64,000 nucleotides of DNA from Arenicellales bacterium (GTDB lineage Bacteria; Pseudomonadota; Gammaproteobacteria; Arenicellales; JAJDZL01): contig OZ242211.1 of the NCBI GenBank assembly GCA_965206345.1, positions 2,599,078-2,663,077 of the forward strand, written 5' to 3'. This document shows positions 3,001-18,288 of this stretch, piece by piece (within the stretch, counting starts at the first letter, position 1; each line of letters starts with the position of its first letter). The notes below the pieces were generated by a model that worked only from the letters and a program-made list of their open reading frames with translations, searched no databases and had not been told where the DNA came from. Both the position numbers and the translations under genes were made by a program.

Positions 3001-5315
3001 ACTACATTCGTTTGCTCTACGTAAGGTTTGGGATTCAATTCTGTCCGGAATGTCATGTCGAGATTCATGCTCGATCAATCGAATCCATTGTTCAACAGAT
3101 CATTCGCGAACGAATGAACACGAGGGTTAGCGTACTCGCTCCACTAGTAGTATCGCGCAAGGGGAATCATAATCCTTGGCAGCAGTGGGCCCTGAAACGT
3201 GGAGCGTCCTCTCTACTTGTGGATGGTGAACTGCATTCGACTCAGAATTGGAAGCCACTAGATCGATACCGTCTGCATAGTATTGATTTGCCAGTAGCGA
3301 CGATCGAATTGGGTCCGGATTACGCGTCTGCTAGAGCAAATCTAATAGCGGCAATTGACGAATCGTTGCAAATCAAAGATGGACATTTTCGTATTGCATA
3401 CCCCGCGCTGGATCAGGAAACCGAAGACCGTAATTTGGAACTTTTTTCTACCAGTCGATCCTGTACCAGTTGTGGGAGAGCTTTTGAAGAACTGGATCCA
3501 AGGCTGTTTTCGTACAATTCAAGTCAGGGTTGGTGTGACGCATGCCTTGGCACCGGATTGGCGATTAAGAATGCTGACAGCCAGGATAATGAGGACCCGG
3601 ACCACCTTACCGATGGTGAAATCTGTGGCACATGTGAAGGGCGAAGACTCAATCCCGAAGCGCTGGCTGTTCAGTTTCACGGAATAACCATTGATGAAAT
3701 GACTCGCTGGTCAGTGCGAGATGCCAGAATCAGGCTTTCCAAGTTGAGACTGACTGACCGTGAAAAGGTAGCAGCACAAGATATTTTGGCCGAATTGACT
3801 TCACGGCTTGCGTTTCTGGAATCAGTTGGACTATCTTATCTTTCTCTTGATCGTGCAGCACCAACGTTAAGTGGTGGCGAAGCACAGAGAATTCGTCTCG
3901 CTGCCCAATTGGGATCGAGTCTCTGCGGTGCGTGCTACGTGCTTGACGAACCGACGATTGGATTGCACAGTCGGGATAATCAGTTGCTGCTATCAGCTCT
4001 CGCATCGCTTAGGGACAAAGGAAATACGATTGTGGTGGTTGAGCATGATGAAGACACAATAGTTTCAGCTGACCACATCATTGATCTCGGGCCCGGTGGA
4101 GGCGTTCGCGGTGGTGAGGTTATTGCGACTGGGACGGTTCAAGAAATTCGCAAAAATTCTAGCTCAATTACTGGACGTATGCTGACGTCACCGTTACAGC
4201 ATCCTATGCCAAGAACCCGTGCAGCAGCGAATCCAAAAAACTCCATTGAAATTAGCGGCGTATTTCGACACAACCTACAAAAAGTCAACGTATCATTCCC
4301 GGTCCAGGCATTGATATGCGTAACTGGTGTCAGTGGCAGCGGAAAAAGTACGCTCGTTCGTGACGTGCTTTATCGAAATTTGTCAGCTGTACTATCACAA
4401 AGGCAATCTGATGAAATCGAACATGCGTGGGACTACTGTAGCAACATCACCGGTTGGAATCAGGTGCGTCGAGTGCTGGAGGTTGATCAGACGCCCATTG
4501 GCAAAACGCCAAGATCCTGCCCGGCAACATATGTCAATGTATGGCAAATTATTCGAAAGTTATTCGCAGAGACTGCGGAAGCACGACTTCGGGGGTATAC
4601 CGCATCAAGATTTTCCTTTAATGTAGCGGAAGGACGATGTCCAACTTGCGGGGGACAGGGTGAGAAGAAAATTGAAATGAACTTTTTACCTGATGTAAGG
4701 GTGCGATGCGAAAGTTGTAATGGCGCTCGATTTAATCAGGAAACGCTCAGCGTTCATTATCGAGATAAGACAATTGCTCAAGTTCTGGATTTCAGTGTCG
4801 AAGAAGCGCTGGAATTTTTCTCAGCACTGCCGTCACTGGAACGTGTTTTTGGTCTACTTGTAGATGTGGGACTTGGGTACCTGAGACTTGGTCAGCCTAG
4901 TCCGACATTGAGTGGAGGAGAGGCTCAGAGAATAAAGTTGGTTTCGGAACTCGCAAAGGCACTACCGCGTGATAATTACAAGATTCAGGCGGCTTCTCAG
5001 GCTAGACCTGTACTTGGGACTCTATACGTGTTGGATGAACCGACTGTTGGACTGCATGCAGCGGATGTCGAAAAACTGCTCAAGGTCATTCACGCCCTGG
5101 TTGATGCTGGCAATACTGTTGTTGTTATCGAGCACAATCTGGACGTGGTCTCAGAGGCTGATTGGATAGTTGATTTGGGTCCGGAAGGAGGCGATTCAGG
5201 AGGGAAGATAGTTGTAGAGGGAACTTTGGACAAATTAACGAAATCCAGACGCTCCCATACTGCCCGAGCCTTGCGAGAATTCAGACGAACTTCCCGTACC
5301 TCCGCCCGGAACTAG
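1..5315 (+). CDS. Tandem-duplicated UvrA-like ABC ATPase (two UvrA units in one polypeptide); the 5' end lies upstream of the window
   Basis: The frame is open from nt 3. The first residues DQVNPVRTTRSTVGTMTEINDHLKLLFAR match the conserved UvrA RSTVGT-TEI-D-LRLLFAR block, so the ATG at 48 is internal. Unit 1 has CPNCG, CDSCRGFG, CESCEGSG..CTECDG, Walker A GVSGSGKST and two LSGGE signatures. Unit 2 restarts near nt 2690 with NLKNISVSIPYNAMTVITGMSGSGKSTLAFDILFAEGQKRYL and repeats all modules (CPECH, CTSCG, CDACLGTG, GVSGSGKST, CPTCGGQG..CESCNG, LSGGEAQR twice). Confidence 0.85.
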   Translation, partial: DQVNPVRTTRSTVGTMTEINDHLKLLFARIASLYCPNCGKLVKQRTNDEICDSIFEEFEDANMIRVMFPVHVPKSLSTEFALEHLRNQGYTRIAHRKGETMLVIQDRLRPVNASRSRLIEAIEVSLYRGSNSVIVQRLDESGEGAGPELEFTDKLRCCGYDYSKSTSNLFSFNSPIGACDSCRGFGRTIGIDYDQVIPDKSLTLREGAIRAFNSPVYSESYHDILRYGSESGIPLDTPWCDLEDEHKRWVIEGEGGWYSGKWYGVKLFFAWLERRKHRMHVRVFLSYYRSYTRCKDCGGARLKPAAFNWRLGNRVEEIESYQKYKHPAFQMTGSQFDRLPGLTIHDVASLPITRCVEFFTRIQLPSPYDDAAALLLDEIRARLGYLNSVGLGYLNLDRQSRTLSGGEVQRINLTTALGTTLVNTLFVLDEPTIGLHSRDIGRVIEILHRLRDTGNTLLVVEHEEQVIRAADQIADLGPGPGSSGGRLVHFGSLRELLNSTKSVTAACLNNGDYLTEIRPNGHLQEQSLPLVIRGAEQNNLKGIDVSIPLGQLVCITGVSGSGKSTLIEEVLFRGVCRQLGRSTEAPGHHQSIDGVENIDDMVMVTQAAIGRTTRSNPVSYVGALTPIREIFARQPLAKSKGYTAGHFSFNSKLGRCESCEGSGFEHIEMQFLSDVYLRCTECDGTRFRSEICQVKVNPDSNIDSDTLSEPLSIVDVLNLTVADAIEFFQNETKVVNALAPLVDVGLDYLTLGQPVPTLSGGEAQRLKLAAHIAKNTSIRRKRREHIVFLFDEPTTGLHFTDVSKLISSLRRLLDSGHSVVVIEHNLDLVSSSDWLIDLGPEGGEFGGELVGEGTPTSVAHNYSTATAEALREYFNGKANRKHKNLGEVSANQQIDQQIVIQNAREHNLKNISVSIPYNAMTVITGMSGSGKSTLAFDILFAEGQKRYLATINAYARQFVQPATRADFDSIAGLPPTVAISQMISRGGRRSTVATLTEIYHYIRLLYVRFGIQFCPECHVEIHARSIESIVQQIIRERMNTRVSVLAPLVVSRKGNHNPWQQWALKRGASSLLVDGELHSTQNWKPLDRYRLHSIDLPVATIELGPDYASARANLIAAIDESLQIKDGHFRIAYPALDQETEDRNLELFSTSRSCTSCGRAFEELDPRLFSYNSSQGWCDACLGTGLAIKNADSQDNEDPDHLTDGEICGTCEGRRLNPEALAVQFHGITIDEMTRWSVRDARIRLSKLRLTDREKVAAQDILAELTSRLAFLESVGLSYLSLDRAAPTLSGGEAQRIRLAAQLGSSLCGACYVLDEPTIGLHSRDNQLLLSALASLRDKGNTIVVVEHDEDTIVSADHIIDLGPGGGVRGGEVIATGTVQEIRKNSSSITGRMLTSPLQHPMPRTRAAANPKNSIEISGVFRHNLQKVNVSFPVQALICVTGVSGSGKSTLVRDVLYRNLSAVLSQRQSDEIEHAWDYCSNITGWNQVRRVLEVDQTPIGKTPRSCPATYVNVWQIIRKLFAETAEARLRGYTASRFSFNVAEGRCPTCGGQGEKKIEMNFLPDVRVRCESCNGARFNQETLSVHYRDKTIAQVLDFSVEEALEFFSALPSLERVFGLLVDVGLGYLRLGQPSPTLSGGEAQRIKLVSELAKALPRDNYKIQAASQARPVLGTLYVLDEPTVGLHAADVEKLLKVIHALVDAGNTVVVIEHNLDVVSEADWIVDLGPEGGDSGGKIVVEGTLDKLTKSRRSHTARALREFRRTSRTSARN

Positions 5316-5981
5316 TACCTGACGTAAGTCTTCGTGCCGCTGTGCAATGTACGTTTTCATTGCAAGTTCTGCTCGGTCCGCATCGCGCTCTGCGACCGCC
5401 TTCGCAACGTCGTGGGTCATCACTTCATGCGCCTGCGCTATTGAGTGCCAGCTGCCAAGTCGCTCTGAAATGAGGAACCAAAGTCGTAGATGCAGGTTCA
5501 TGATGCGCGGGATGGTCTCAGAAATGAATGTGTTGCGCACTGAACTTGCAAGCACCTTGTAGAAGTCACGGTTGGCATCAACGTACGCGTCAATATCATC
5601 CTGCTCGGTTGCAGCGACCAGTGCATGATGGATTTCCATGAGGCTGTCTGCCTGTGCTTTTGTCGCTCGCATTGCAGCAAGCCGGCATGCAGATCCGTCG
5701 ATGATGCTGCGAAATTCGTAAATTTCCTGAATTTCCGTTATTCCGACTTCAGATACAAACATTCCGCGATTCAAGCGGTGAACTACAAGCCCTTCAATTG
5801 CCAGGCGTTGCAGAGCTTCTCTTACTGGCGTTCGGCCAATGCCTAGTTCCTCAACCAGACTTCTTTCTGCAAGAACTGAACCCGGCGATAGTTCCAGTCG
5901 CGTGATTCGTTTGACCAGCTCTTCATAGGCCAAATTGCTTAGAGATTTATCTTTATGGATAGGTTTTATGGAGATGTTCAC
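5235..5981 (-). CDS. GntR-family (FadR/FCD-type) transcriptional regulator, last gene of the corrinoid operon
   Basis: N-terminal winged HTH: LAYEELVKRITRLELSPGSVLAERSLVEELGIGRTPVREALQRLAIEGLV, followed by a helical FCD-like C-terminal domain. The GTG start overlaps the upstream stop (TAGTG). The 3' tail overlaps the convergent uvrA-like gene by 81 nt. Confidence 0.85.
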   Translation of the reverse strand: MNISIKPIHKDKSLSNLAYEELVKRITRLELSPGSVLAERSLVEELGIGRTPVREALQRLAIEGLVVHRLNRGMFVSEVGITEIQEIYEFRSIIDGSACRLAAMRATKAQADSLMEIHHALVAATEQDDIDAYVDANRDFYKVLASSVRNTFISETIPRIMNLHLRLWFLISERLGSWHSIAQAHEVMTHDVAKAVAERDADRAELAMKTYIAQRHEDLRQVLVPGGGTGSSSEFSQGSGSMGASGFR

Positions 5982-6982
5982 TAGGCTGCATCAGTAATTG
6001 GTACGCCGAACCCAGATGCAATAGATTCCGGATTGAGGTCTCGACCAATAAAAACCAGCCGATAATGCGACTTGGTTTCAGCTACAAACACTTCCAGTTG
6101 GCCGGCTGAATACTGAATCAGCGAGGGTTGGCCACTGACAATCATATGACCTTTCATCCGCCAGACATTATCGGGCAGTCGTCCGCAAGCTCTTTCCAGA
6201 TCAACTTGCGAAACGTCTTCGTGTGGCGCGATAACAAAAGACTCCATCGTTTCATGTGCATGATGATGCTCCTCATCATGATGATGGTGGTGTTCGTCAT
6301 GATCATGATGGTGATGTGAATGATCTTCGCCGTTGGAAGAATCATATCTTTCAAGCAATGCTGAAACATCATCTGAAAATACCAGGCTAGAGTCGACATC
6401 ACAAAACTCGGTGAATCGTATCTCTGCCCACGGATTAATTTCCTTAATCTGCTCAGTCACATTCTTTAGTTCCTGCTCATCCGTTCGATCAATTTTGTTA
6501 ATGATCACGATGTCCGCATTCAGAACTTGCGAGACATAAAACTCACCCAGCATCGGGCGGACTTTGTTGAAGTAAGACGCATCAACGACCACTACTATTG
6601 GTGCCACGTTCATTTTATTAGCAATAGTGGAGTCCTCTAGATCATCAAGCATGTCTTCTGGGTCAGCGACGCCAGTTGCTTCAACAACGATACGTTTGGC
6701 ACCTTTGTCGTTTGCAAGTTCTTCAATCGCGTTCATCAGTGAGCCTTTGAGGGTGCAGCAGATACAGCCTGACGCCAGCTCAACTGTGTCGATGGTATTT
6801 CCTTGAATGATATCGCCGTCGATCCCGACGTCGCCAAACTCATTAACAATGACTGCAGTTGGGTACCCAGGGTCTACCGTTTGCAGAAGATTTCTGACTA
6901 GTGTAGTCTTTCCAGCACCCAGAAATCCAAACAACAAGTGGATCTGTGGCAAGGTGCGCAATTCGCTGATATCCGATTGCAT
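5981..6982 (-). CDS. CobW/COG0523-family G3E GTPase (metallochaperone-type) with a His-rich insert
   Basis: Walker A GFLGAGKTT, metal motif GCICC, NKID G4 motif, and a His-rich stretch HSHHHHDHDEHHHHHDEEHHHAH (15 His in 23 residues, nt 6254-6322). Confidence 0.85.
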   Translation of the reverse strand: MQSDISELRTLPQIHLLFGFLGAGKTTLVRNLLQTVDPGYPTAVIVNEFGDVGIDGDIIQGNTIDTVELASGCICCTLKGSLMNAIEELANDKGAKRIVVEATGVADPEDMLDDLEDSTIANKMNVAPIVVVVDASYFNKVRPMLGEFYVSQVLNADIVIINKIDRTDEQELKNVTEQIKEINPWAEIRFTEFCDVDSSLVFSDDVSALLERYDSSNGEDHSHHHHDHDEHHHHHDEEHHHAHETMESFVIAPHEDVSQVDLERACGRLPDNVWRMKGHMIVSGQPSLIQYSAGQLEVFVAETKSHYRLVFIGRDLNPESIASGFGVPITDAA

Positions 6983-7024
6983 GCCTAATACTTGAGCAAT
7001 ATTTTGAAAATATATTACTGCATT

Positions 7025-8965
7025 TTATACGAGTTGCCGCTGTCGCCGCTCTTGTCTTCTCCGGCGGTTAGATTTGGATGAAACAGGGAATGGTGCTCCT
7101 TTAAACGCCATTGAGTCGACGAAGATATCCTGAAAGTCGGGCCGAGCAGCTAATGCGACGTGCTCAATGTTCTGAGTGATTTGATAGGCATTGATTCTTT
7201 CTGATTCTGACAGTAAAGCCATTTGTGCACCGAGTAGAGCTGCATTACCGACGTAGGCAATCCGTTCGTTCTCAAGATCTGGAAGAAGCCGAATCGTTTT
7301 TGCGCTTTGAATGTTGATGTAATTGCCGAAACCACCGCACAACATCAAAAGCTGTATTTCGTCATCGCTGATGTTCATGACGGACTGGAGCATTCGAATA
7401 CCGGAGAAAATTGCGCTTTTCGCAAGCTGCAGTTGCCTTACATCACCTTGTGTAATACCAATTCTCCGGTTTTTGCCCGAGTCTTCTTCCCATACCAAAG
7501 CAAATTCGCGAGAGCCTTTTTCTGATAGAACAAGACGCTTTTGAATTTCGGGTGATAGTTGTTCAACATCATGTTTTCTGAAATTGCCGTTACGATCCAT
7601 CACGCTCGCATCGATCATCTTGGCTGCTGCATCAATCAATCCGGAACCACAAATACCAATGGCTGGTACGTCGCCAATAGTCAAACAACTGAAATCATCA
7701 TTCACTTCGACTTTTTCGATGGCACCGATTGCGCCACGCATGCCATCTCGAATTTGTGCACCTTCGAGGGCAGGGCCGGCCGGAGCGGAACAGGCAGTCA
7801 AGCGATCGCGAGAACCCATCACCACTTCGCCATTGGTCCCAATATCGACTAGAGTCCTAGTTTCCTCGCTTTCGTGAATGCGAGTGGCTAATATGCAAGC
7901 GACGGTATCCGCACCGACAAATCCGGCGATGATCGGCAGCATACACACCTGTGCATTGGGAGCCGCTTTTAGGGGAAGATCCGATGCGGGAAAAACCAGA
8001 TTTTCTCGAACCACGGGGGCATAAGGCGCTAGACCTAAATAGCTAACATCGATTCCCAGAAAGATGTGGTGCATACAACTGTTGCCGACAATGACTATTT
8101 TGTAGACATGTTCGGAATCGACTCCTGCCTCCTCGCAGCATTCTCGGATGTACTGATTGACCTGATTAATCACTTTGGCCCGCAGTGTAGTCAGTTTTTT
8201 CTCGTCGAACTGAGCGTATGCAATTCGTGACATCAAGTCGCCACCGTATACTGCCTGCGCATTGACCCCGCCCGCAGAAGCCAACTGCTCACCGGTTCGA
8301 AGATCAAGCAGAGTGCCAACCAGACTCGTCGTTCCTATGTCAAAGGCAAAGCCATACAGTTTGTTGGTTGTGTCTCCAGCTTCTACATCGATAATTCGGC
8401 CATTGAATCGAGTGACTGTCAGTTTGCCGTTTTTTTCCCGCAGAATTGGCGGGATCTTGCGCATACACTGAATTGGAACATCGTGATGAGCAAGGTCTGA
8501 AATTGTCGCTAGAATTTCCTCAACATCTGAAGTTTGATGATGCTCTTCGACAGGTGCTTTTGCGGTAACTGTAATTTTGGTGATGCCACTATCCAGATGA
8601 AACTCATCTGTGTCCATCATTGGATCATGTGCTTCAAGAATCTTATGACCTTCTTCCGTCTTTGGTGGCATAGGTGCCACCGTGGAATCGTCAAGCATGC
8701 GGGTTTGACAGGAAAGTCGAAAGCCTTCCAGAACTTCATCATGGCCCAGCTGTACTGTGTCCTGTACAGATGGTGGGGGAATCGCGCCTTTAAGGATTTT
8801 TACCCGGCAGCTTCTGCAGCGACCGCGTACCCCGCATGTGGCTTCAATGTTGATGCCGGCGTAGCGTGCGGCATCAAGAATGGTGAGATCTCGTGGAACC
8901 TGTACGGTTTTGTCAGCATGCTTCCCGGAGGTGCTGACAAAGGTAACGGAGATCCTGTCAGACAT
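7025..8965 (-). CDS. RACo-type reductive activator of corrinoid proteins (N-terminal 2Fe-2S ferredoxin fused to an ASKHA ATPase)
   Basis: Plant-type ferredoxin cysteines CGVRGRCRSCRV...LSCQ. ASKHA phosphate and adenosine motifs FDIGTTS, VDIGTNGEV, ICGSGLID. The 646-aa length is typical of this family. Confidence 0.8.
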   Translation of the reverse strand: MSDRISVTFVSTSGKHADKTVQVPRDLTILDAARYAGINIEATCGVRGRCRSCRVKILKGAIPPPSVQDTVQLGHDEVLEGFRLSCQTRMLDDSTVAPMPPKTEEGHKILEAHDPMMDTDEFHLDSGITKITVTAKAPVEEHHQTSDVEEILATISDLAHHDVPIQCMRKIPPILREKNGKLTVTRFNGRIIDVEAGDTTNKLYGFAFDIGTTSLVGTLLDLRTGEQLASAGGVNAQAVYGGDLMSRIAYAQFDEKKLTTLRAKVINQVNQYIRECCEEAGVDSEHVYKIVIVGNSCMHHIFLGIDVSYLGLAPYAPVVRENLVFPASDLPLKAAPNAQVCMLPIIAGFVGADTVACILATRIHESEETRTLVDIGTNGEVVMGSRDRLTACSAPAGPALEGAQIRDGMRGAIGAIEKVEVNDDFSCLTIGDVPAIGICGSGLIDAAAKMIDASVMDRNGNFRKHDVEQLSPEIQKRLVLSEKGSREFALVWEEDSGKNRRIGITQGDVRQLQLAKSAIFSGIRMLQSVMNISDDEIQLLMLCGGFGNYINIQSAKTIRLLPDLENERIAYVGNAALLGAQMALLSESERINAYQITQNIEHVALAARPDFQDIFVDSMAFKGAPFPVSSKSNRRRRQERRQRQLV

Positions 8966-8967
8966 TA

Positions 8968-9705
8968 TTACGCCCAGACTTCGCGCGGGGTTTCCACCAG
9001 TTTTAACGCCAGTCTGACTGCCTGAACAGCATCTTTACCCCAACCATCTGCACCACATTCTTCGGCCCATTCAGGGGAGGTTGGGGCACCACCAATCAGA
9101 ATTTTTACTTTCTCTCGATGCCCTGCATTTTGAAATTCTTCGATTGTTACTTTCTGATAGTAAACCGTCGTCGAAAGTAGTGCTGAAAAACCGACCAGGT
9201 CTGCTTTTTCATTAAGTGCTGTCTCAATGAATTTATCAGGATGAACATCCGTGCCAAGATTAATGACATTAAAACCAGCATTTTCAAGCATGATGGTCAC
9301 AATAGATTGTCCGATGTCATGCATGTCACCGAGCACCGTGCCTATTACGAATGTACCGACAGGCTTTTCTGCCTGTGCCGCGAGAAGGGGGCGAATCAGT
9401 GCCAGACCTGCCTTCATGGCTCTGGCCGTTATCAGCATCTCCGGAATGAAAATAACCATTGCACTGAATCGGTCGGCCTGCAGATTAAATCCTGGAAACA
9501 AACCGTCATCCAGAATAACACGCGGATCAATGCCCATCTCAATGCTTTCACGCACGCGCTCGTCAGTATATATATGGTCGCCGGTTTCTACCGCCTCCCA
9601 CAGGGTCTGCCATTCCCACCCCTCTGGGGCACGGCTTTCCCAACCTTCCGGTATTTGTAGCTCGGGCTCTTCCGGACCCTCGTAATCTAAAAATTCTGTA
9701 TTCAA
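8968..9705 (-). CDS. Corrinoid (cobalamin)-binding protein: B12-binding cap plus Rossmann domain
   Basis: DxHxxG motif GDMHDIG, a helical cap segment LWEAVETGD...FIPEMLITARAMK, and GGAP near the C-terminus. The N-terminus carries a short PEGWE..PEGWE repeat. Confidence 0.85.
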   Translation of the reverse strand: MNTEFLDYEGPEEPELQIPEGWESRAPEGWEWQTLWEAVETGDHIYTDERVRESIEMGIDPRVILDDGLFPGFNLQADRFSAMVIFIPEMLITARAMKAGLALIRPLLAAQAEKPVGTFVIGTVLGDMHDIGQSIVTIMLENAGFNVINLGTDVHPDKFIETALNEKADLVGFSALLSTTVYYQKVTIEEFQNAGHREKVKILIGGAPTSPEWAEECGADGWGKDAVQAVRLALKLVETPREVWA

Positions 9706-9714
9706 TTTTTTTAC

Positions 9715-10884
9715 TCAGTTCAATGGATATTTTCCGTATGTTCCAAAATCACGCTGTGCTTCCAGCATTGCGAAAATATTCTGAATGGGTACATCTGCCA
9801 GAATGTAGTGAGACGGTGAAAAGATGTATCCGCCATCTACTGCCAGATTTTTCATGACCTCGCAAACGCCTTGGCGCACCTGCTCGACCTGACCGCGCGG
9901 TAAGAGTCGCTGCACATCGAAACCACCGATGAAAGCGATATCCTTGCCATATTTTTTCTTGAGTTCAGCCTGGTTCTTATTACCGCCAGTTGGTTGCATC
10001 AATCCAGACAGGTCAACGCCGAGTTCGATCATATCGCCAATGATGGGTGAATAGTCTCCACACGAATGAAGTTTGATGAAAATATCATTATTCGATTTAC
10101 GAAATTCATCAAACATGTACTGAAAACGAGGCTTTGCAAGCTGTCGCCATTGGAGTGGTGAAATCATCATCGATTGCTGAGCACCGACATCGTCCCCGAC
10201 CCGAATCATGTCAATGCCTAGGTCTATTACATTCTTGCCAAGTTGGGTGTAGTACTCTGTCAATCCATCAAGAACGCCATCAATCAATTCAGGCTGATCA
10301 AACATATAGAGAAAGAAGTTCTGAGTCCCAACTACGTGTGCATATGCGGCCTCTATCAAGGTTGATGAAAGATCAACAATGATGAAATATTCGTCCTGGT
10401 ACTCTTCCAAGAGCGTTCTAATTGGATCAAGCAGTTCGGGATCAGCGGGGTCAGGCCAGGTGTAGTTCTTTAAATCCTCCATCGAGGTAATCGGGTGAAA
10501 ATTGGGAAAGTTTTCTGGAACAACTTTGGCAGGCCCCCAAAATTCCTGGGTTTTTGTAAACTCTTCGTGTTCCTCGGCAGTGCGACCCTTAAGTCCGCTT
10601 TTTCCGTAACCAACACCAAAGTGGTTGTACCATGTCTCACCAATCTGGATGGGACGATGAGAAAATTGCGCATTGATTCCGATCTGGTAGATGATCGCAT
10701 CATTTCCGAGCCGAAGTTCCAATTCGGGATTGTGCTTCATGCCAGTGCCAGTCTTTGTAACGCCATATATGCGAGCTATTTTTTCTTTCGCTTCACTTTT
10801 CATTCGGTACAGCAGCGGCACCCGGTCAACTTTTTCGTGCCTGACGGCACGTGTAAATCGCTCACGCGGTAACAGTTCTTTCAT
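9715..10884 (-). CDS. URO-D/MtaA-family methyltransferase (putative substrate:corrinoid or methylcorrinoid:acceptor methyltransferase) with a zinc-type HxC...C motif
   Basis: The length and TIM-barrel-like pattern fit the uroporphyrinogen decarboxylase family (RVPLL near the N-terminus, GDDVG, FSPSH). KLHSCGD supplies H273 and C275, and C341 lies downstream, matching the Zn ligands of MtaA/MtbA-type enzymes. Confidence 0.75.
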   Translation of the reverse strand: MKELLPRERFTRAVRHEKVDRVPLLYRMKSEAKEKIARIYGVTKTGTGMKHNPELELRLGNDAIIYQIGINAQFSHRPIQIGETWYNHFGVGYGKSGLKGRTAEEHEEFTKTQEFWGPAKVVPENFPNFHPITSMEDLKNYTWPDPADPELLDPIRTLLEEYQDEYFIIVDLSSTLIEAAYAHVVGTQNFFLYMFDQPELIDGVLDGLTEYYTQLGKNVIDLGIDMIRVGDDVGAQQSMMISPLQWRQLAKPRFQYMFDEFRKSNNDIFIKLHSCGDYSPIIGDMIELGVDLSGLMQPTGGNKNQAELKKKYGKDIAFIGGFDVQRLLPRGQVEQVRQGVCEVMKNLAVDGGYIFSPSHYILADVPIQNIFAMLEAQRDFGTYGKYPLN

Positions 10885-10930
10885 TCTGAGTCTCTCTGTA
10901 GTTGCATGTATATTTGTGGGATCTTTTCAA

Positions 10931-11965
10931 TTAGCCTGACGCCACCTGTGCGGTTGCTTTTGGTTTTCTTGCTGGACGTGTCGAGCGTCGATCAAGAGAT
11001 CGGATGTACTTCAGGTAAGCCACCGAAAATTCATCCTTTGCAGTCAGTGAGTTTGCCGCAAATCGAAAATCATCAAACGGTTTAACCTGATTCATGATCG
11101 GGTCGATCATCAAAGCATCGCAGCCTGACATGATGGAGAGGACGACAAAGGCATGGTTAAGAATTTTTCGCTGCGGCAGCCCAAATGAAACGTTGCTATG
11201 TCCTCCAAAAATGTGCACCTCAGGGTAGCGAGCTCGCATTTCTCGTACGGCATCAAGGTAGTGATTGCCGAAATCGGGGCCGGCGCCAATCGGAAACACC
11301 AATGGATCCAAAAAGCGATCTTCCATCGGGATGTTACCTTCATCCATCATCTGCATGCATTTTTCCAGATTATCAATACGTTCTGTTTCGTTTTGCGGCA
11401 TGCCTCGATTGCCGCTGGCGTTAGCGAACAGAATTGCATTTCTTTCCCGAGCCATGTCAACGAGAACCTGTCTGCCGTCTTCAAGGTTAAACGAGTTGAT
11501 TGCCGGTCTGCTGATTGAGCCATCGTGTGCTTCAAGTCCTGCGTAAATCGTGTTTGAGTCCGACGAATCAATCGAGACAACGGTTGAGGTAATGCTTTGT
11601 GCGGTGGTTACCAGCCATCGCATCCAATCATAGCGTTCCTCCGGGTAGACCGACATTTCATCCACACAGAGATCGATGATATGGGCGCCTGCAACTTCCT
11701 GGGACTTGATCGCCCAGGTTATGTAATCCATATTTTTTTGTCGGCACGCTTCGGCGATATGTGGAATTGCAAACACACGTTGCTGATTCGGGTCCTCGGG
11801 TATGGTATCGGTTACATCCAGTCTGCCTTGTGAACCATCGAGCTGTGTATAAGTGACATACCAATTTCCTTCTTCACGCAGAACGCGTGGGCTAGATGCC
11901 TTGATCTTTCGGGTGGCGTTAAAGTTCTCACCGATGATGATGAGACCATTGTTGGCTACTTTCAT
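10931..11965 (-). CDS. Pterin-binding (MetH/AcsE/MtrH-like) methyltetrahydrofolate:corrinoid methyltransferase
   Basis: Pterin_bind-type blocks IIGENFNATRK, GAHIIDLCVD, VSIDSS, AINSFN and HSNVSFGLPQRKILN. An unusual ~45-aa insertion follows the first strand. Confidence 0.75.
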   Translation of the reverse strand: MKVANNGLIIIGENFNATRKIKASSPRVLREEGNWYVTYTQLDGSQGRLDVTDTIPEDPNQQRVFAIPHIAEACRQKNMDYITWAIKSQEVAGAHIIDLCVDEMSVYPEERYDWMRWLVTTAQSITSTVVSIDSSDSNTIYAGLEAHDGSISRPAINSFNLEDGRQVLVDMARERNAILFANASGNRGMPQNETERIDNLEKCMQMMDEGNIPMEDRFLDPLVFPIGAGPDFGNHYLDAVREMRARYPEVHIFGGHSNVSFGLPQRKILNHAFVVLSIMSGCDALMIDPIMNQVKPFDDFRFAANSLTAKDEFSVAYLKYIRSLDRRSTRPARKPKATAQVASG

Positions 11966-11984
11966 TGTCCAGAATTAATATTAG

Positions 11985-12650
11985 TTAAGTTGGGATCAGT
12001 CCAAATAATCCTGAGCGCGACATCTTTGGTAACATTGCGGCACTTTCTAGCAGTTTGACGGGCATATCAGGATCATCTACAAGATCAAACAGTGGTTTTT
12101 GGTCAGTCAAATCCCACATAACCTGCTTTCCATCAATGGGATAGGAGTATCCCGGACCCAATCGCCTGGTCATTCTCATCGATTGCTGCACTGCCCAACT
12201 TCGAACCATCAGGACAAATTGTTTAGTTGCATCTTCGACACCCAACCAGGCTGCAGATTCCAAAAACAGCGCTTCAACCAGTTTCTCCTCATCCATCCAC
12301 TGAATTGTCTGTTCATCGATTTCCCTGCCAACAGTGAGTACAAAAACCACCGCTTCAACTGATTGACTCAAGTATTGTTTGAATATCTCACTTTGCAGAT
12401 GAATTCCGTTGCCAAGTACTGCACCGCTATTGTCGACAGAATGTACATCGACAATTCGGTAGGAGACAACTGGTTTCGTTTTTTCGATGAATTTTTCCCG
12501 CGCTGTTAGCGCAGATGCGCGAATGACTTTTCTAACCTTCTCCAGGTTTTTGTATCCCTGAATTTTGAGTATTCCATCAATTTTCGGTTCCGGAATTTCA
12601 AGTTTCAGCGTTGTAGCCTGACCGCGAACCAGGTTCAGTGTCGTGCTCAT
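11985..12650 (-). CDS. Stand-alone protein resembling the MetH reactivation (AdoMet-binding activation) domain
   Basis: The C-terminal half aligns by eye with the E. coli MetH activation domain. VVFVLTVGREIDE..ALFLESAAWLGVEDATKQF..RRLGPGYSYP..LLESAAMLPKMSRSGLFG corresponds to YIGAFAVTGG..ALADRLAEAFAEYLH..IRPAPGYPACP..LTESFAMWPGASVSGWYF. Confidence 0.5.
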   Translation of the reverse strand: MSTTLNLVRGQATTLKLEIPEPKIDGILKIQGYKNLEKVRKVIRASALTAREKFIEKTKPVVSYRIVDVHSVDNSGAVLGNGIHLQSEIFKQYLSQSVEAVVFVLTVGREIDEQTIQWMDEEKLVEALFLESAAWLGVEDATKQFVLMVRSWAVQQSMRMTRRLGPGYSYPIDGKQVMWDLTDQKPLFDLVDDPDMPVKLLESAAMLPKMSRSGLFGLIPT

Positions 12651-12664
12651 ATTAATTGATCTAT

Positions 12665-12674
12665 TTTGGTATAT
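12665..12674. promoter_or_regulatory. TTTGGTATAT motif just upstream of the corrinoid operon start; an identical 10-mer recurs at 16306-16315
   Basis: Direct reading. The 10-mer lies 15-24 nt from the first start codon (12650) and is followed by ATATATC direct repeats. This is a candidate operator only. Confidence 0.25.
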
Positions 12675-13168
12675 CGAAAATATATCAGAAAATGGAAAGA
12701 CACTGTTCTCTATTCACTCTCCAGATTTTATTGAAACCAAAATCGTATTCGGAGTTCAACGAACAAGGGGACAGGATGTTAAATCTTCAGTATTGGGCAG
12801 TCTACGCGATATTGACAAATGCAAAGGAATGGACGCTTTCCCCGGATGGAGTCGAAAATTATCTGTAGGCAGTCGAAGTAACTGATCGATTTTATGAGTA
12901 ACGTGGAAGTACCCATGAGTGCAAACAAAATTATTGGTAATTTAAGCGTAATTAGACTGGGTCTGGCATAAACATGTTTCAGATTGGAGCGGTTGACTAG
13001 GTAGGCAAGACGGTGCTGAATAAACACTCAGACGCAGTTCGATGGAGAGTAAATTTAATCGACTGGTGTCTTGCGCCGTGGCCATGAAGTGCTGTCGCAG
13101 CGCCCACTACTGAAGACGCAAACTGCAGTTAAATTCCATTACTTTTAGTAAATTCTCCTACAATAGAA

Positions 13169-13196
13169 CTATATAATTAGTTTTATCGATATATAG
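13169..13196. promoter_or_regulatory. Inverted repeat CTATATA-N14-TATATAG directly upstream of arsR (candidate ArsR operator/promoter)
   Basis: Perfect 7-bp arms at 13169-13175 and 13190-13196, ending 2 nt before the arsR ATG. Confidence 0.3.
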
Positions 13197-13198
13197 TA

Positions 13199-13522
13199 AT
13201 GATCTGTACACCTCAAGCGTCCAAAGGATTTTCCGCAATCGGTTCTGATGCACGATTGAAAGTTTTGCGTTCGCTCGTACGTGCAGGACCTAGTGGCCTT
13301 AGCGTAGGTGAAATCCGGCATCGACTCGACATTCCTGCATCTACACTGGCACACCACCTCCGTGCACTCGCTGATGGCGGTTTGATCGATCAGCAAAAGT
13401 GTGGACGTACTGTTATCAATCGTGCCAATTACGACCATATACATGAACTAGTCAATTACTTGCTTGAGGAATGTTGTGTCGATGAACCCAATACGGCAGC
13501 AGCGTGTCTGCCGAATGAATAA
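13199..13522 (+). CDS. arsR: ArsR/SmtB-family metalloregulator
   Basis: Winged HTH: DARLKVLRSLVRAGPSGLSVGEIRHRLDIPASTLAHHLRALADGGLIDQQKCGRTV. C-terminal Cys pair EECC. First gene of an ars-like operon. Confidence 0.85.
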   Translation: MICTPQASKGFSAIGSDARLKVLRSLVRAGPSGLSVGEIRHRLDIPASTLAHHLRALADGGLIDQQKCGRTVINRANYDHIHELVNYLLEECCVDEPNTAAACLPNE

Positions 13523-13551
13523 ATTCCATTTTTAATTCAGGAGACATATTA

Positions 13552-13956
13552 ATGAAACTTCATCTATCGTTAGCTGTTAAAGACTTCGATTCCGCAGTCA
13601 CTTTCTACACCGGGCTGTTCAAAAAGGACCCAAAAGTCTTAAAGGATGGCTATGCCAAGTGGGATGTAGACAATCCTGCCGTGAATTTTGCAATCTGCAG
13701 AAACGCAAGTTTTCAGGGAGTGGATCATGTGGGAATTCAGGCTGACTGTGATGAAGAACTTGAAGATCTTGCTCACCGCGTCCGTGATTCCGGTCAACCG
13801 TATCTTGAAATGGAACGAGTAGACTGCTGTCATGCCACAATGGACAAAGCCTGGGTCAAGGGTATTGCCGATGAAAAATGGGAAGTATTTCTGACTCACC
13901 GTCACGATTTGGATCAATTTGGCATCACCCAGCAAGAACAGATTGATGCGTTATAG
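13552..13956 (+). CDS. arsI: ArsI/CadI-family VOC (glyoxalase-fold) metalloenzyme, putative C-As lyase type
   Basis: The pattern matches ArsI/CadI: KLHLSLAVKDFDSAVTFYTGLF, VDHVGIQ, the vicinal cysteines in VDCCHATMDKAWV, and EKWEVFLT. A GGAG RBS lies upstream. Confidence 0.7.
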   Translation: MKLHLSLAVKDFDSAVTFYTGLFKKDPKVLKDGYAKWDVDNPAVNFAICRNASFQGVDHVGIQADCDEELEDLAHRVRDSGQPYLEMERVDCCHATMDKAWVKGIADEKWEVFLTHRHDLDQFGITQQEQIDAL

Positions 13957-14001
13957 GCGCTTCATTACAACGCGGGTTTTTACTATTTTCGGACTCTCAT
14001 C

Positions 14002-14685
14002 ATGACCTGGACACCTTTTGCCAGAGCGCTTCTAGCCGAGTGGTTAGGCACAGCCTTGCTCCTTGCCACAGTAATCGGTTCAGGAATCATGGGCGAAACT
14101 CTAGCTGGTGGCAATGTGGCAATTGCACTTTTAGGGAACACGATCGCGACTGGTGCTATTTTGGTGGTGCTTATTACGATGCTAGGTCCCGTTTCTGGCG
14201 CTCACTTCAATCCTGCGGTGACCTTGGTTTTTGCTCTGAAAAAGGACATTTCCTGGAATCGGGCTGCCCTTTACATCTTGGTTCAGGTTTTCGGCGGTCT
14301 AGTCGGGATGCTGGTAGCTCACTACATGTTTGCGGAACCACTTTTTCAGCTTTCACAGAATGTCCGAACTGGAGACTCTCAGTGGTTCTCCGAAGGCGTT
14401 GCGACATTCGGCCTCGTGCTAACAATACTGGCCACTTTGCGTGCTAGACCTAGCGCGGTTCCTTTGGCGGTGGGTTTGTATATAACCGCTGGATACTGGT
14501 TCACAGCGTCGACATCATTCGCCAATCCTGCAGTAACAATTGCGCGCAGTTTTACAGATACCTTTTCCGGCATTTTGCCTGCGCATGCACCGATGTTCAT
14601 CATCGCACAGATTATCGGTGCTGTAATTGCTCTGTTTATTGCGAACCGACTCTACGCAAGTGAAGAGTTAGACACACGAAGTTGA
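14002..14685 (+). CDS. MIP-family channel (aquaglyceroporin-like, ars-operon associated)
   Basis: Two NPA boxes (HFNPAVT, FANPAVT) and six predicted hydrophobic helices. Confidence 0.85.
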   Translation: MTWTPFARALLAEWLGTALLLATVIGSGIMGETLAGGNVAIALLGNTIATGAILVVLITMLGPVSGAHFNPAVTLVFALKKDISWNRAALYILVQVFGGLVGMLVAHYMFAEPLFQLSQNVRTGDSQWFSEGVATFGLVLTILATLRARPSAVPLAVGLYITAGYWFTASTSFANPAVTIARSFTDTFSGILPAHAPMFIIAQIIGAVIALFIANRLYASEELDTRS

Positions 14686-14782
14686 ATGATTTCTCTGTTG
14701 TATCGAAAGCTGCAGGGTTAGGGAAGTATTCGCCAAAACCATGGCATGTTGAGAAATCTTTGAGAGGTGCGCTAGACAGAAA

Positions 14783-15667
14783 TCAGGCGACACTTTTGCT
14801 GCGAGTTTCAGCCTCCAACTGAAAACGCTCTAGCCACTCGGCAGATTTTCTTAATCCACCCAGCGGATAAACGTGCACCTTTTCTATCATTGTGTCTGAA
14901 TTCAAACTGCGGTGCTGTGCAAGGTCACACAGCAGTTGCTCAGGTGTGGAGTTTTGAAGTAACTTCTTGGCACTACGTGCCTGTTTCTTTAGAAAATTCA
15001 TGGATGGACCGATTCCACAGGCCGCAGCGTGCTTAAGAAGTGTTCCAATTGTTGCGACGCCTGGAATACCGATGTGAACGGGTAGTTTATTACCAAGTTC
15101 GGCCAGTTGCCGTTCCCATTCAACAACAGCTTTAGCCTGAAAACAGAATTGTGTCACGAGATACATCTCTGCGTCAGTTCGCTCTGCAAACTGGTTTTTC
15201 CATTTCAGAGCATCTTCCAATCCTCGAGTAGAAATGTCTGGGCTGCCTTCCGGATGCCCAGCCACTCCAATTTTGGAAATGCCCATCTGGTCAAATAGTC
15301 CGGTTTCCAGAAGCTGCATGGAGTTCTCATAGTCTCCTACAGGTTTTCTTGAACTTCCGGCAAGCACCAATACTTGAGTGCCTCCTGCTTCGTCGCAGAA
15401 TCGCTGAAGCGATGATGCAATTTTCTGCCGGTTTGAAATTTGTCGCGCTGCGTAGTGTGGAACCGGATTAAATCCTTCATTTGCCAGCCGTATGCAAACC
15501 GAAATTGTGTCGTCAATGGTTGAACCTGGAAGCAAGGTGACATACACAGTCGTGCCAGCAGGCAAAATGAGGCGGTAATCTGGGATCTTGGTTGACGCCC
15601 CGGGGGTTGTTTCGACTGAATAACCCCGAATGAGTTGATTTAACGCGAATTGGATGGAATCTGACAA
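14783..15667 (-). CDS. metF: Methylenetetrahydrofolate reductase (MetF-family)
   Basis: The N-terminal YSVETTPG block, VLVLAGS, GVAGHPEG and VTQFCF are typical of MetF-like proteins that sit next to methyl-THF-forming demethylases. Confidence 0.75.
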   Translation of the reverse strand: MSDSIQFALNQLIRGYSVETTPGASTKIPDYRLILPAGTTVYVTLLPGSTIDDTISVCIRLANEGFNPVPHYAARQISNRQKIASSLQRFCDEAGGTQVLVLAGSSRKPVGDYENSMQLLETGLFDQMGISKIGVAGHPEGSPDISTRGLEDALKWKNQFAERTDAEMYLVTQFCFQAKAVVEWERQLAELGNKLPVHIGIPGVATIGTLLKHAAACGIGPSMNFLKKQARSAKKLLQNSTPEQLLCDLAQHRSLNSDTMIEKVHVYPLGGLRKSAEWLERFQLEAETRSKSVA

Positions 15668-15718
15668 TGGACTACCGATCCCTGCAGAAAGTCAAGAAAA
15701 ATAATTTGACGGATAATT

Positions 15719-16252
15719 TTAATTCCAATCGAAGTAAATGACGGCATCGTGGAAGTCATTTATTTCGGTTTCACTTGACGATAGAATTCTATAGCCGTTG
15801 CCAGTCTCGGAAACCCAATCATTGTCCAACATGATGCGGTTTGCGATCCAGTGATCGGCGCATTGATTACCGATCAGCACAAAAACTTGTGAAGCGTTTA
15901 CGGTTATGCCGCTATCAGGACCAAATCGGGTATTCATGGGGCGGGGTGTTTTCCAATCTGCAATGACCTGGCAGTTCTCGGCATCGAGAGAGTCGAGCAT
16001 TAGTGCGCGTTGAATGGGCCAGGCGAATGAATTTCCGAAAATGTTAGCGGTGGTGTCAGGCAGGCTGCAGGCAACCGCCATTAGATGATCACCAACGAAA
16101 CTGAATCGTTCATAAAGAGCTGAATCCGCATCGACTGCAACACAAGCGTACTCGCTTAAATCAGGCCCTGATTTGATCTCAGGGGCCATCCAGTCCATGT
16201 CTTTTAATGAATGTCTGTCAAATTCAGGAACCGGAAACCTTTTTGCCCACAT
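15719..16252 (-). CDS. Hypothetical protein (177 aa), apparently co-transcribed upstream of metF
   Basis: A long ORF with ordinary composition, lying 51 nt upstream of metF on the same strand. I recognise no family. Confidence 0.5.
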   Translation of the reverse strand: MWAKRFPVPEFDRHSLKDMDWMAPEIKSGPDLSEYACVAVDADSALYERFSFVGDHLMAVACSLPDTTANIFGNSFAWPIQRALMLDSLDAENCQVIADWKTPRPMNTRFGPDSGITVNASQVFVLIGNQCADHWIANRIMLDNDWVSETGNGYRILSSSETEINDFHDAVIYFDWN

Positions 16253-16305
16253 CGGATTTACCTGTTGTGAAATAGGTGCTGAGAATTGCTAGGTATTTTA
16301 ATATA

Positions 16306-16323
16306 TTTGGTATATACGCCAAA
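16306..16323. promoter_or_regulatory. TTTGGTATATACGCCAAA inverted repeat in the divergent promoter region; shares TTTGGTATAT with 12665-12674
   Basis: Direct reading. TTTGG/CCAAA arms sit between the divergent starts at 16252 and 16403. Confidence 0.25.
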
Positions 16324-16402
16324 TTCAATTCTAGCGACTGAATTGGCATCAACGATACCCTTGATACCTGAATGTTTGAAAATTTTCTTGTGAGGTTAGA
16401 GC

Positions 16403-16693
16403 ATGGCTAAAGTTCAGATTCTGTATTGGCAAGATATTCCGTCGGTGGTCGAAGCGCGCGACGAAAATGGAGTTCACAAGGAACTTTTAAGTGAGCGCTT
16501 CCAGGAATTAATTGACTTAATCGCCATGAAAACCAAGCTTGCTGGAACCGATGAATATCTAATGCAGTGGGCTAAAGGTAAACGGTACGAGGTAGACGGT
16601 TCTGCCGAAGAAGTTGCCAAGTCGGTCAAAGATGATTTTGAGTCTCAATACAAGGAAATCCGCAAGCGAGAATTGGCCAAAGCAGTCGGTTAG
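16403..16693 (+). CDS. Small protein of the so-called 'virulence factor' family (PF13769-like), function unknown
   Basis: MAKVQILYWQDIPSVVEA...ELLSERFQELIDLIAMK..GTDEYLMQWAKG matches my memory of the YWRDIP..ERF..ID..AM..D.YL..W pattern seen beside MetF/corrinoid genes. Confidence 0.55.
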   Translation: MAKVQILYWQDIPSVVEARDENGVHKELLSERFQELIDLIAMKTKLAGTDEYLMQWAKGKRYEVDGSAEEVAKSVKDDFESQYKEIRKRELAKAVG

Positions 16694-17961
16694 TCAAGAC
16701 CAGGCACGTAGGCGATTGCGCGAAAATCATTGACATTGGTCAGGGTAGGACCAGTCATCACTAAGTCCCCGAGATTTTCAAAAAAGCTATAGGCATCATT
16801 GTTTTTCAAGTATTCGCTGACATCCATTCCTTTTGAACGGGCGCGCTTTAACGTAGACGGTGTCATCAAAGCACCAGCATTGTCTTCAGAACCATCAATT
16901 CCGTCTGTATCACAGGCAATTGCATAAATACCTGTCATGCCGTCAAACTCCTTCGCGATCGCCAATACATACTGAGAATTCGGTCCGCCTTTTCCGGAGC
17001 CGGTAACTTTCACTGTCGTTTCTCCGCCAGAAAGGATAGCAAATGGCTTGTCTTTCGAAAAATGAGTAAGCTTGTCTCGTAAGAAGGATGCATGCTGTTT
17101 CGCGACCTGGTTGGTGTCGCCCTCGACGGCATCACCGAGTGAAAAAACTTCTAAACCCAGTTTGTGTGCCTTCTCGGCACTAGCTTTAAGCGCATCCTTA
17201 GGTCTTGCCACAATCCTAATTCTGGATTGCTTAAATACAGGGTTGTCCGGCTTCGGTGTCTCGAGTTCGCCTATCTTCAACTTCATCAAAATGTATTGTG
17301 GGACATTGATGCGATATTGCGATATGACATCAAGCACTTCATCACAAGTTGATGGGTCTCCAACAGTTGGGCCTGAGCCAATGATGGAGGGATTATCACC
17401 GACGACATCTGATATACAGAGTGTCAGTGCAGAGGCAGGATAAATGTGGCTCATGAGGCGCCCACCCTTTATGGAGGATAGGTGTTTACGAACACAATTT
17501 ATCTCGTGAATCGTTGCCCCCGCCAAAAGCAGCTGCCGGGTGATTGATTGTTTATCTTCAAACGCGATTTCAGGATGCGGTCGAGATAGCAGGGAGGATG
17601 CGCCTCCAGAAATTGCGATGATTACATAGTCCATTTCATCAAGAGTCTTGGCCAAATCGATCACTCGCTTTGCTGCTCTCAACCCCAATTCATCAGGTAC
17701 TGGGTGTGCAGCTTCAACAACTTCGATGGATCTCGTTGGCACCGCATGCCCATAACGGGTGACAACTAGACCTGAAGTCTCACCTGGAACATGGTGTTCA
17801 ATAGTTTTTGCCATCGCGGCAGCGGCTTTTCCTGCACCGATCACACGAATTTTTCGATCAGGTAGGTTGTCTAGATGGGAGGGTAGACACTTTGGAGCTG
17901 AAGCTTGGTCGACAGCAGTTCTAAACAGGTCGATCAACATCGATTTCGGATCAACATTCAT
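16690..17961 (-). CDS. Glycerate 2-kinase / hydroxypyruvate reductase family (DUF4147 + MOFRL)
   Basis: VIGAGKAAAAMA, ISGGASSLL, LSGGETTVKVTGSGKGGPNSQ, CDTDGIDGSEDNAGA. Confidence 0.8.
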   Translation of the reverse strand: MNVDPKSMLIDLFRTAVDQASAPKCLPSHLDNLPDRKIRVIGAGKAAAAMAKTIEHHVPGETSGLVVTRYGHAVPTRSIEVVEAAHPVPDELGLRAAKRVIDLAKTLDEMDYVIIAISGGASSLLSRPHPEIAFEDKQSITRQLLLAGATIHEINCVRKHLSSIKGGRLMSHIYPASALTLCISDVVGDNPSIIGSGPTVGDPSTCDEVLDVISQYRINVPQYILMKLKIGELETPKPDNPVFKQSRIRIVARPKDALKASAEKAHKLGLEVFSLGDAVEGDTNQVAKQHASFLRDKLTHFSKDKPFAILSGGETTVKVTGSGKGGPNSQYVLAIAKEFDGMTGIYAIACDTDGIDGSEDNAGALMTPSTLKRARSKGMDVSEYLKNNDAYSFFENLGDLVMTGPTLTNVNDFRAIAYVPGLD

Positions 17962-18288
17962 CGTTGAGAATTCTTGAATTGGATCAGGCGTATTGTCGAT
18001 TTCGGTTTGTCATTCGGCATGAAACAGTCGCAGTAGTGAAGTTTTTCAATATCTAAATCGAAGAATCATAAACTAGACTTACCCAACGAAATTCTCCTTT
18101 CTCCATTGAGCAACTCCAAATCAGAATGCGGACACATTTCCACAGTGGAAGCAAAAGACTTCAACATCTTGCTCTGACAACCGTTCGAAATTTTACGAAG
18201 AATGGCAAGGGACAACATCAGACTGAATAGTTACTTGAAACGGAATCCTGAAGTCTCAGGTTCGATTCGTGTGTATCGAACATGCCAT

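Follow-up and report, generated by a model that had tools for sequence, protein, structure and literature searches.

In a 64,000-nucleotide window of the genome of an Arenicellales bacterium (contig OZ242211.1, positions 2,599,078 to 2,663,077 of the forward strand), we found that the first gene of a seven-gene operon codes for a divergent, stand-alone homolog of the activation domain of the cobalamin-dependent methionine synthase MetH, and that the fifth gene of the same operon codes for a RACo-type ATP-dependent reductive activase. The two genes co-occur in several bacterial classes, and in anaerobic Bacillota they are fused into a single reading frame. With moderate confidence we propose that the two proteins form one composite reductive-methylation unit, in which ATP-driven electron transfer to a corrinoid protein would be combined with the capture of a methyl group from S-adenosylmethionine (AdoMet). 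The operon comprises the following genes, in the order of transcription:

11985-12650, minus strand: activation-like protein, 221 aa, stand-alone, resembling the MetH activation domain and of the TM0269 type (first gene)
10931-11965, minus strand: pterin-binding methyltransferase of the methyl-corrinoid:tetrahydrofolate type, 344 aa, MeTr/CmuB-like (PF00809, 57.6 bits)
9715-10884, minus strand: methyltransferase of the URO-D / MtaA-CmuA family, 389 aa (PF01208, 114 bits; TIGR01463, 81 bits)
8968-9705, minus strand: free-standing corrinoid protein, 245 aa, B12 cap and Rossmann domain (PF02607, B12-binding_2; PF02310, B12-binding)
7025-8965, minus strand: RACo-type ATP-dependent reductive activase, 646 aa, with an N-terminal [2Fe-2S] ferredoxin domain (fifth gene)
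5981-6982, minus strand: G3E GTPase of the COG0523/CobW family, 333 aa (PF02492 and PF07683)
5235-5981, minus strand: transcriptional regulator of the GntR/FCD type, 248 aa (PF00392 and PF07729), last gene, overlapping the GTPase gene by 1 nt and syntenic with the operon

The genes are tightly packed, with successive intergenic gaps of 19, 46, 9, 2, 42 and -1 nt. A first-pass annotation of this DNA had already placed the first and fifth genes at these coordinates in one operon, and the two strings it quoted, RRLGPGYSYP and LLESAAMLPKMSRSGLFG, are both present in the translation of the 221-aa protein.

We compared the 221-aa protein with profile, sequence and structure collections. Its match to the MetH activation domain model PF02965 stays below the 25-bit cut-off (14.4 bits, E 0.026), and a sub-threshold match to the same model is found in 48 of the 51 family members, among which no other family recurs. 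The sole meaningful phmmer match among the sequences of the Protein Data Bank (PDB) is 1j6r (E 2.9e-7), which is TM0269 from T. maritima and is annotated in the PDB as 'activation (AdoMet binding) domain of methionine synthase'. The family profile (A1) again recovers 1j6r alone from the PDB sequences, at E 6.9e-11, and does not match MetH directly. An AlphaFold2 model calculated with 51 homologs (pLDDT 96, pTM 0.90) has 1j6r as its top Foldseek match in the PDB (E 4.6e-14, TM 0.75/0.83), after which come only activation domains of MetH (Thermus, E. coli and human; E 2e-7 to 1e-4, TM about 0.6). TM0269 and these domains account for all 19 matches with E<=1e-3, and the next fold appears only at E>0.1. 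When aligned by hhalign to E. coli MetH alone, the narrow profile A1 covered just the C-terminal 26 residues, and broadening was needed: a profile that combines the window family with 58 more distant stand-alone relatives aligns with four MetH activation domains at 96.5 % probability (E 1e-9), with residues 38-220 of the window protein corresponding to residues 971-1185 of E. coli MetH. The 221-aa protein is therefore homologous to the MetH activation domain, though divergent and encoded on its own, and most resembles TM0269. The first-pass annotation had reached the same assignment from resemblance; profile and fold similarity now establish it, while the Pfam score by itself falls short.

An exhaustive profile search returned 3,322 representative clusters, 945 of them at E<=1e-10, nearly all of which are stand-alone proteins of 200-250 aa. 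Since distant relatives in this profile family exceed the PF02965 cut-off (26-42 bits), we place the window protein in a divergent, unannotated wing of the PF02965 superfamily; its close relatives are labelled 'hypothetical' in all sources. No record of the exact 221-aa sequence was found in the sequence databases, and a plasmid collection held no homolog; a close relative, P0001, is encoded in the same gene order as in the window. Elsewhere in the 64 kb there is no second MetH activation domain.

In E. coli MetH, AdoMet is contacted by Asp946, Glu1101, Tyr1130, Arg1134, Tyr1139, Tyr1189 and Tyr1190, with Tyr1189 stacking on the adenine and Tyr1190 making its contact through the backbone (PMC1282579). 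We verified this numbering on the K-12 sequence. The segment R163-L-G-P-G167-Y168 (RxxxGY) is invariant in 51 sequences of the window family and aligns to Arg1134, Gly1138 and Tyr1139. A C-terminal motif, E202-S203..M206.P208..S211.S213-G214 (ES..M.P..S.SG), is likewise invariant in the 51 homologs; it reads LLESAAMLPKMSRSG in the 221-aa protein and corresponds to LTESFAMWPGASVSG of MetH. The invariant E139 aligns with Glu1097 by hhalign, or with Glu1101 when TM0269 is used as a bridge (FFIDGIASEMVEY against ALADRLAEAFAEY, 'EY'). N35, an Asp in most members, is matched to Asp946 in a low-confidence alignment only, and Tyr1130 is replaced by Arg159. By these alignments the core motif is retained and part of the adenine pocket is absent, which fits the view that TM0269 reportedly may bind AdoMet somewhat differently.

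The resemblance to TM0269 extends beyond its rank as the best sequence and structure match. Both proteins are stand-alone (TM0269 has about 215 aa), both carry the RxxxGY segment and a D/E...E helix motif, and both are short, lacking the extended C-terminal segment found in E. coli MetH. They share 22 % sequence identity, and in the window family 8 extra residues follow GY. TM0269 reportedly serves, as a separate protein, to reactivate the split methionine synthase TM0268. The partner in the window would not be a MetH, as no homocysteine-binding domain is present, but a free corrinoid protein accompanied by methyltransferases of the URO-D and pterin types, with a RACo encoded alongside. The activation domains of MetH itself (PF02965; E. 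coli 1msk/1k7y, human 2o2k, Thermus 8ssd) share the same unique fold and the equivalents of R1134, G1138, Y1139 and LTESFAMWPGASVSG; the window protein differs from them in being about 110 residues shorter and in not being fused to a B12 domain, and its electron donor would be RACo rather than flavodoxin or MSR.

The identity of the fifth gene product is clear, and here too the first-pass call of a RACo-type activase holds. Fer2, RACo_linker, Raco_middle and RACo_C_ter all exceed their Pfam cut-offs, residues 18-618 give a full-length match to the Carboxydothermus structure 3zyy (E 2.3e-106), and the cysteines of the [2Fe-2S] cluster are Cys44/50/53/86. Against the AcsV model (NCBIfam NF040756) the protein scores 437 bits, below the 800-bit cut-off. 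By these profile matches it belongs to the RACo family but is not an ortholog of the acetyl-CoA-pathway protein AcsV. It has the four-domain architecture common to RACo (3zyy) and the RACE/RamA-type activases, and differs from Carboxydothermus RACo by its presumed client, the corrinoid protein of a methyltransferase in an aerobic proteobacterium, and by the activation-like protein encoded with it. Apart from RACo, the operon contains no gene for a reductase, nor one for a flavodoxin. Reductive methylation of the MetH type requires an external electron donor, which is flavodoxin in E. coli. Because the activation domain needs such a donor and RACo is the only reductase encoded, the two proteins are unlikely to represent independent routes.

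We investigated how regularly the two genes occur together. A genome scan for the activation-like gene yielded 80 loci, 66 of which have at least 6 kb of downstream flank and are informative. Loci with 95-97 % identity belong to metagenome-assembled genomes of Arenicellales (Gammaproteobacteria); the family is also present in Rhodospirillaceae, Magnetovibrio, Hyphomicrobiales, Geminicoccaceae, Acidiferrobacterales, Usitatibacter and Thioalkalivibrio sp. HK1. A RACo gene lies downstream in 47 of the 66 informative loci, from Arenicellales, Rhodospirillaceae, Magnetovibrio, Hyphomicrobiales and Usitatibacter. The complete order of activation-like protein, pterin methyltransferase, URO-D protein, corrinoid protein and RACo (then GTPase and GntR regulator) is found in 42 of these 47; three others combine a CmuA-like fused URO-D and B12 protein with the activation-like, pterin methyltransferase and RACo genes, and in the remaining two only the adjacent pterin gene is missing.

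A second line of evidence comes from natural fusions. The 839-aa protein P0222 consists of a PF02965 domain (41.8 bits) followed by Fer2, RACo_linker, Raco_middle and RACo_C_ter, and a search with it recovered at least 38 protein clusters of 789-839 aa with an N-terminal activation domain and then the Fer2 and RACo domains. Residues from about 8 to 200 match the window family profile in all 38 (E 3e-35 to 4e-4, profile positions about 18-219). Their hosts are anaerobic Bacillota, such as Anaerovoracaceae and Clostridium sp. HMP27, and one fusion contig also carries genes for 2-hydroxyacyl-CoA dehydratase and its activator. Two arrangements occur: the fusion gene is flanked by genes for a URO-D methyltransferase and a corrinoid protein, or it immediately follows those for a corrinoid protein and an MtmB-like methyltransferase. 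Examples in anaerobic Bacillota, beside URO-D or MtmB-like methyltransferases and corrinoid proteins, are:

L083, 8001-10490: fusion of an activation domain and RACo
L084, 8001-10481: fusion of an activation domain and RACo
L086, 6001-8370: fusion of an activation domain and RACo

Because the two modules are fused in nature and co-occur as separate genes, we favor cooperation between them, one supplying the electron and the other the methyl group, over redundancy. Reactivation of the split MetH TM0268 from its Co(II) form reportedly requires both TM0269 and AdoMet. We envisage a cycle that would start when the Co(I) form of the corrinoid protein is oxidized to Co(II). An electron would enter RACo through its [2Fe-2S] domain, and ATP would drive the uphill transfer to cobalt. 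The TM0269-like protein would dock on the uncapped corrinoid domain, bind AdoMet and methylate the nascent Co(I), and the corrinoid protein would return to its catalytic cycle as stable CH3-Co(III), with the methyl group passed on to tetrahydrofolate.

A precedent for two reactivation proteins in one system, which we count in favor of a composite unit, is provided by aerobic marine bacteria. The split MetH of Phaeobacter and MtgBCD of Ruegeria are modular corrinoid systems with a RamA-like activase and a small DUF1638 protein (PMC5764234, PMC12478193). Like the window system, they occur in aerobic marine Proteobacteria, comprise a pterin methyltransferase and a free corrinoid protein, and include, besides a RamA/RACo-like activase, another small 'reactivation' protein. 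The methyltransferase in the window is of the URO-D type and not of the MttB or homocysteine type, and the second protein is MetH-activation-like; a Pfam scan of the window proteins gave no DUF1638 match at E<=0.1.

Several observations weigh against a composite unit. AdoMet use by the 221-aa protein is inferred from alignment, and the protein stops at about the equivalent of residue 1186 of E. coli MetH, before Tyr1189/Tyr1190. In addition, the register of the helix bearing Glu1101 is ambiguous by one helical turn. The AdoMet dependence assumed in the first-pass annotation can thus draw on the invariant RxxxGY segment but not on the two tyrosines, and at E139 it depends on the alignment chosen. 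In the fused domains, the equivalent of Tyr1139 in RxxxGY is Asp or Gln, and these domains may therefore not use AdoMet. Nineteen of the 66 informative loci have the activation-like gene without RACo nearby. In such loci it is found next to metF, a stand-alone homocysteine S-methyltransferase gene and a complete metH with its own PF02965 domain (Hyphomicrobiales), beside cobT and a tetrapyrrole methylase gene of B12 biosynthesis, with only an MTHFR-like gene adjoining, or in an operon interrupted by a helicase gene. Two Arenicellales loci, L011 (9947-10651) and L033, hold an intact copy with all motifs that abuts a UvrA-like gene, at a site lacking the six genes that follow it in the operon; the activation-like protein may have a role independent of the operon there, or the operon may sit elsewhere in the genome. 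Finally, the CoFeSP and O-demethylase systems manage with RACo alone.

Part of this could be explained if the 221-aa protein worked independently of AdoMet and only docked on, or chaperoned, the uncapped, His-off corrinoid domain without transferring a methyl group. It would then hold the corrinoid protein open, raising the Co(II)/Co(I) potential for RACo or aiding cofactor loading. The MetH activation domain does stabilize the His-off reactivation conformation, through Glu1069 and Asp1093, and such a helper could dispense with the Tyr1139 equivalent in the fused N-terminal domains and with the Tyr1189/1190 segment in the window protein; the family members that adjoin B12 biosynthesis genes would fit as well. 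However, R163, G167, Y168 and the remaining PF02965 signature are invariant in 51/51 subfamily members, which is hard to explain without ligand binding, and TM0269, the closest solved relative, is said to need AdoMet. We regard a pure helper as a serious alternative, less likely than the composite unit but a stronger contender than the two explanations that remain. One of these is the model of the first-pass annotation, in which AdoMet-dependent reductive methylation and ATP-driven reduction are independent, redundant routes that give an aerobe an unusual double insurance against corrinoid oxidation. Given an electron source, each type of module does suffice in its classical system (MetH; CoFeSP/RACo), and Arenicellales and most other carriers are marine Proteobacteria that we take to be aerobic. 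But an activation domain alone cannot reduce Co(II), and the operon offers it no donor of its own. Pairing is moreover the rule rather than the exception across several classes, and the fused clusters occur in strict-anaerobe contexts such as the 2-hydroxyacyl-CoA dehydratase contig. The pairing is thus neither unusual nor a specialty of oxic life, and we consider double insurance improbable. We give similarly little credence to mere neighborhood, that is, to a 221-aa protein whose client is another corrinoid enzyme encoded elsewhere, such as a MetH that lacks an activation domain. The intact copies in Arenicellales genomes lacking the six downstream genes and the homolog beside metF and metH in Hyphomicrobiales could be read in this way, but that MetH already has its own PF02965 domain, the activation-like gene is separated by only 19 nt from the pterin methyltransferase gene in an order that is constant over several bacterial classes, and the RACo fusions sit in non-MetH clusters.

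The composite unit would service a free-standing corrinoid protein within a larger methyl-transfer system. The URO-D protein matches MtaA (4ay7, E 2e-11), its only close solved relative, and contains an MtaA-type zinc motif, H273-x-C275...C341, which accounts for its only two cysteines; its sequence identity between bacterial classes is 75-92 %. The corrinoid protein has the motifs D127-x-H129-x-x-G and SxL and is of the His-on type. The pterin-binding methyltransferase scores 180 bits against NCBIfam PRK07535, under the cut-off of that model. A URO-D protein with HxC...C, a DxHxxG corrinoid protein and a Pterin_bind methyltransferase are thus all encoded in one operon. In its architecture, the operon encodes a three-component corrinoid system in the style of Cmu and Mta, predicted to act from methyl-X to tetrahydrofolate or in reverse. 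The COG0523 GTPase, with its P-loop, its CxCC motif (CICC) and its His-rich stretch HHHHDHDEHHHHH, keeps its place beside the operon in more than 40 loci and is probably a metallochaperone, which we infer to act on the zinc of the URO-D enzyme or on cobalt. The His/Asp/Glu-rich stretch of the GTPase is unusually long (SHHHHDHDEHHHHHDEEHHHAHE).

The system resembles the chloromethane utilization system CmuA/CmuB in its URO-D-type methyltransferase, corrinoid module, pterin methyltransferase and metF-like gene, and relatives of the window locus carry a CmuA-like fusion of URO-D and B12-binding modules. The window locus encodes these two modules in separate genes. A search of the plasmid collection with the URO-D protein gave no detectable cmuA match and a weak 29 % match to CmuC, and as far as its sequences tell, the window system is not demonstrably a Cmu member. 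The CmuA-like fused proteins, of 623-628 aa, are encoded in Hyphomicrobiales (L067, 542-2428) and Acidiferrobacterales (L059, 13199-15070), in loci that also hold an activation-like gene. L067 additionally contains a pterin methyltransferase gene, RACo, MTHFR and a phosphonate-type ABC binding protein; within L059 there is no RACo or pterin gene, and a CobW-family gene lies downstream of the fused protein.

We next consider the substrate. The genes upstream of the operon are:

13199-14685, plus strand: ArsR-family regulator, VOC metalloenzyme of the ArsI/CadI type with a vicinal Cys pair, and MIP channel (aquaporin), between the MTHFR-like gene and the operon
14783-15667, minus strand: divergent MTHFR-like protein (PF02219, 25.1 bits, just over the cut-off)
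15719-16252, minus strand: conserved neighbor of 177 aa with a LecB-like beta-sandwich, no Pfam or NCBIfam match

The MTHFR-like gene adjoins the activation-like gene even where the remaining operon is absent. Together with the GntR regulator, it suggests a catabolic demethylation that would feed the oxidation of C1 units bound to tetrahydrofolate. The zinc motif, like the COG0523 GTPase encoded with it, hints at a leaving group of the thiol, halide or alcohol type. One may speculate that the operon provides a cobalamin-dependent aerobic route for small methylated sulfur or halide compounds; such a route has, to our knowledge, long been sought. We rejected the arsenic genes as a clue to the substrate because they are present only in the closest relatives (L001-L005); the segment is a lineage-specific insertion, probably of an unrelated arsenic or metalloid cassette. 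The 177-aa protein has only 54 homologs, all labelled 'hypothetical', and co-occurs with the operon in Arenicellales and alphaproteobacterial loci. Its AlphaFold2 model (pLDDT 93) matches LecB/PA-IIL-type lectins by Foldseek (E 4e-5, TMt 0.74), and because of this beta-sandwich fold it was discarded as a candidate electron donor.

Scans of the window region 4500-18000 revealed no cobalamin riboswitch or other credible RNA family. Promoter and terminator scans gave fewer sites than in shuffled sequence, with no significant signal. A plus-strand open reading frame at 48-5315 codes for a UvrA-like protein of 1755 aa, about twice the size of canonical UvrA and with repeated ABC and zinc-finger modules, and is kept beside the operon in Arenicellales. 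On the minus strand at 16690-17961, a glycerate 2-kinase gene (DUF4147 and MOFRL) is kept upstream of the cluster throughout the order; it may indicate a link to C1 assimilation of the serine-cycle type, or its position may be coincidental. A small PF13769 'Virulence_fact' protein (L037, 9501-9929; L001, 5730-6020) recurs next to MTHFR-like, activation-like and metH genes in different lineages.

Rescue of corrinoid proteins is usually treated under two separate paradigms, flavodoxin and AdoMet for MetH and the ATP-driven activases RACo and RamA for anaerobic methyltransferases. A search of the accessible literature turned up no account of RACo being paired or fused with a MetH-activation-like protein. 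We tentatively suggest, and with less confidence than we attach to the composite unit itself, that a widespread third, hybrid mode of corrinoid repair may exist, in which a RACo-type reductase and a MetH-type AdoMet methylase would jointly service the free-standing corrinoid proteins of non-MetH systems. The two components would be split in aerobic Proteobacteria and fused in anaerobic Bacillota, and in the marine carriers they would serve an uncharacterized methyl-X:tetrahydrofolate methyltransferase of the Zn/URO-D type. The methyl-transfer operon of the window is itself uncharacterized and highly conserved in Arenicellales, an order that includes sponge-associated lineages, and in Rhodospirillaceae, Magnetovibrio and Hyphomicrobiales. 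If the conserved pairing and fusion of the two modules are read in this way, the activation-domain family would reach much further than MetH, with about 3,300 representative clusters, most of which lack annotation and escape detection by Pfam. Repair in many corrinoid methyltransferase systems may then depend on AdoMet in addition to ATP, and in vitro reconstitutions with an activase only may miss a component.

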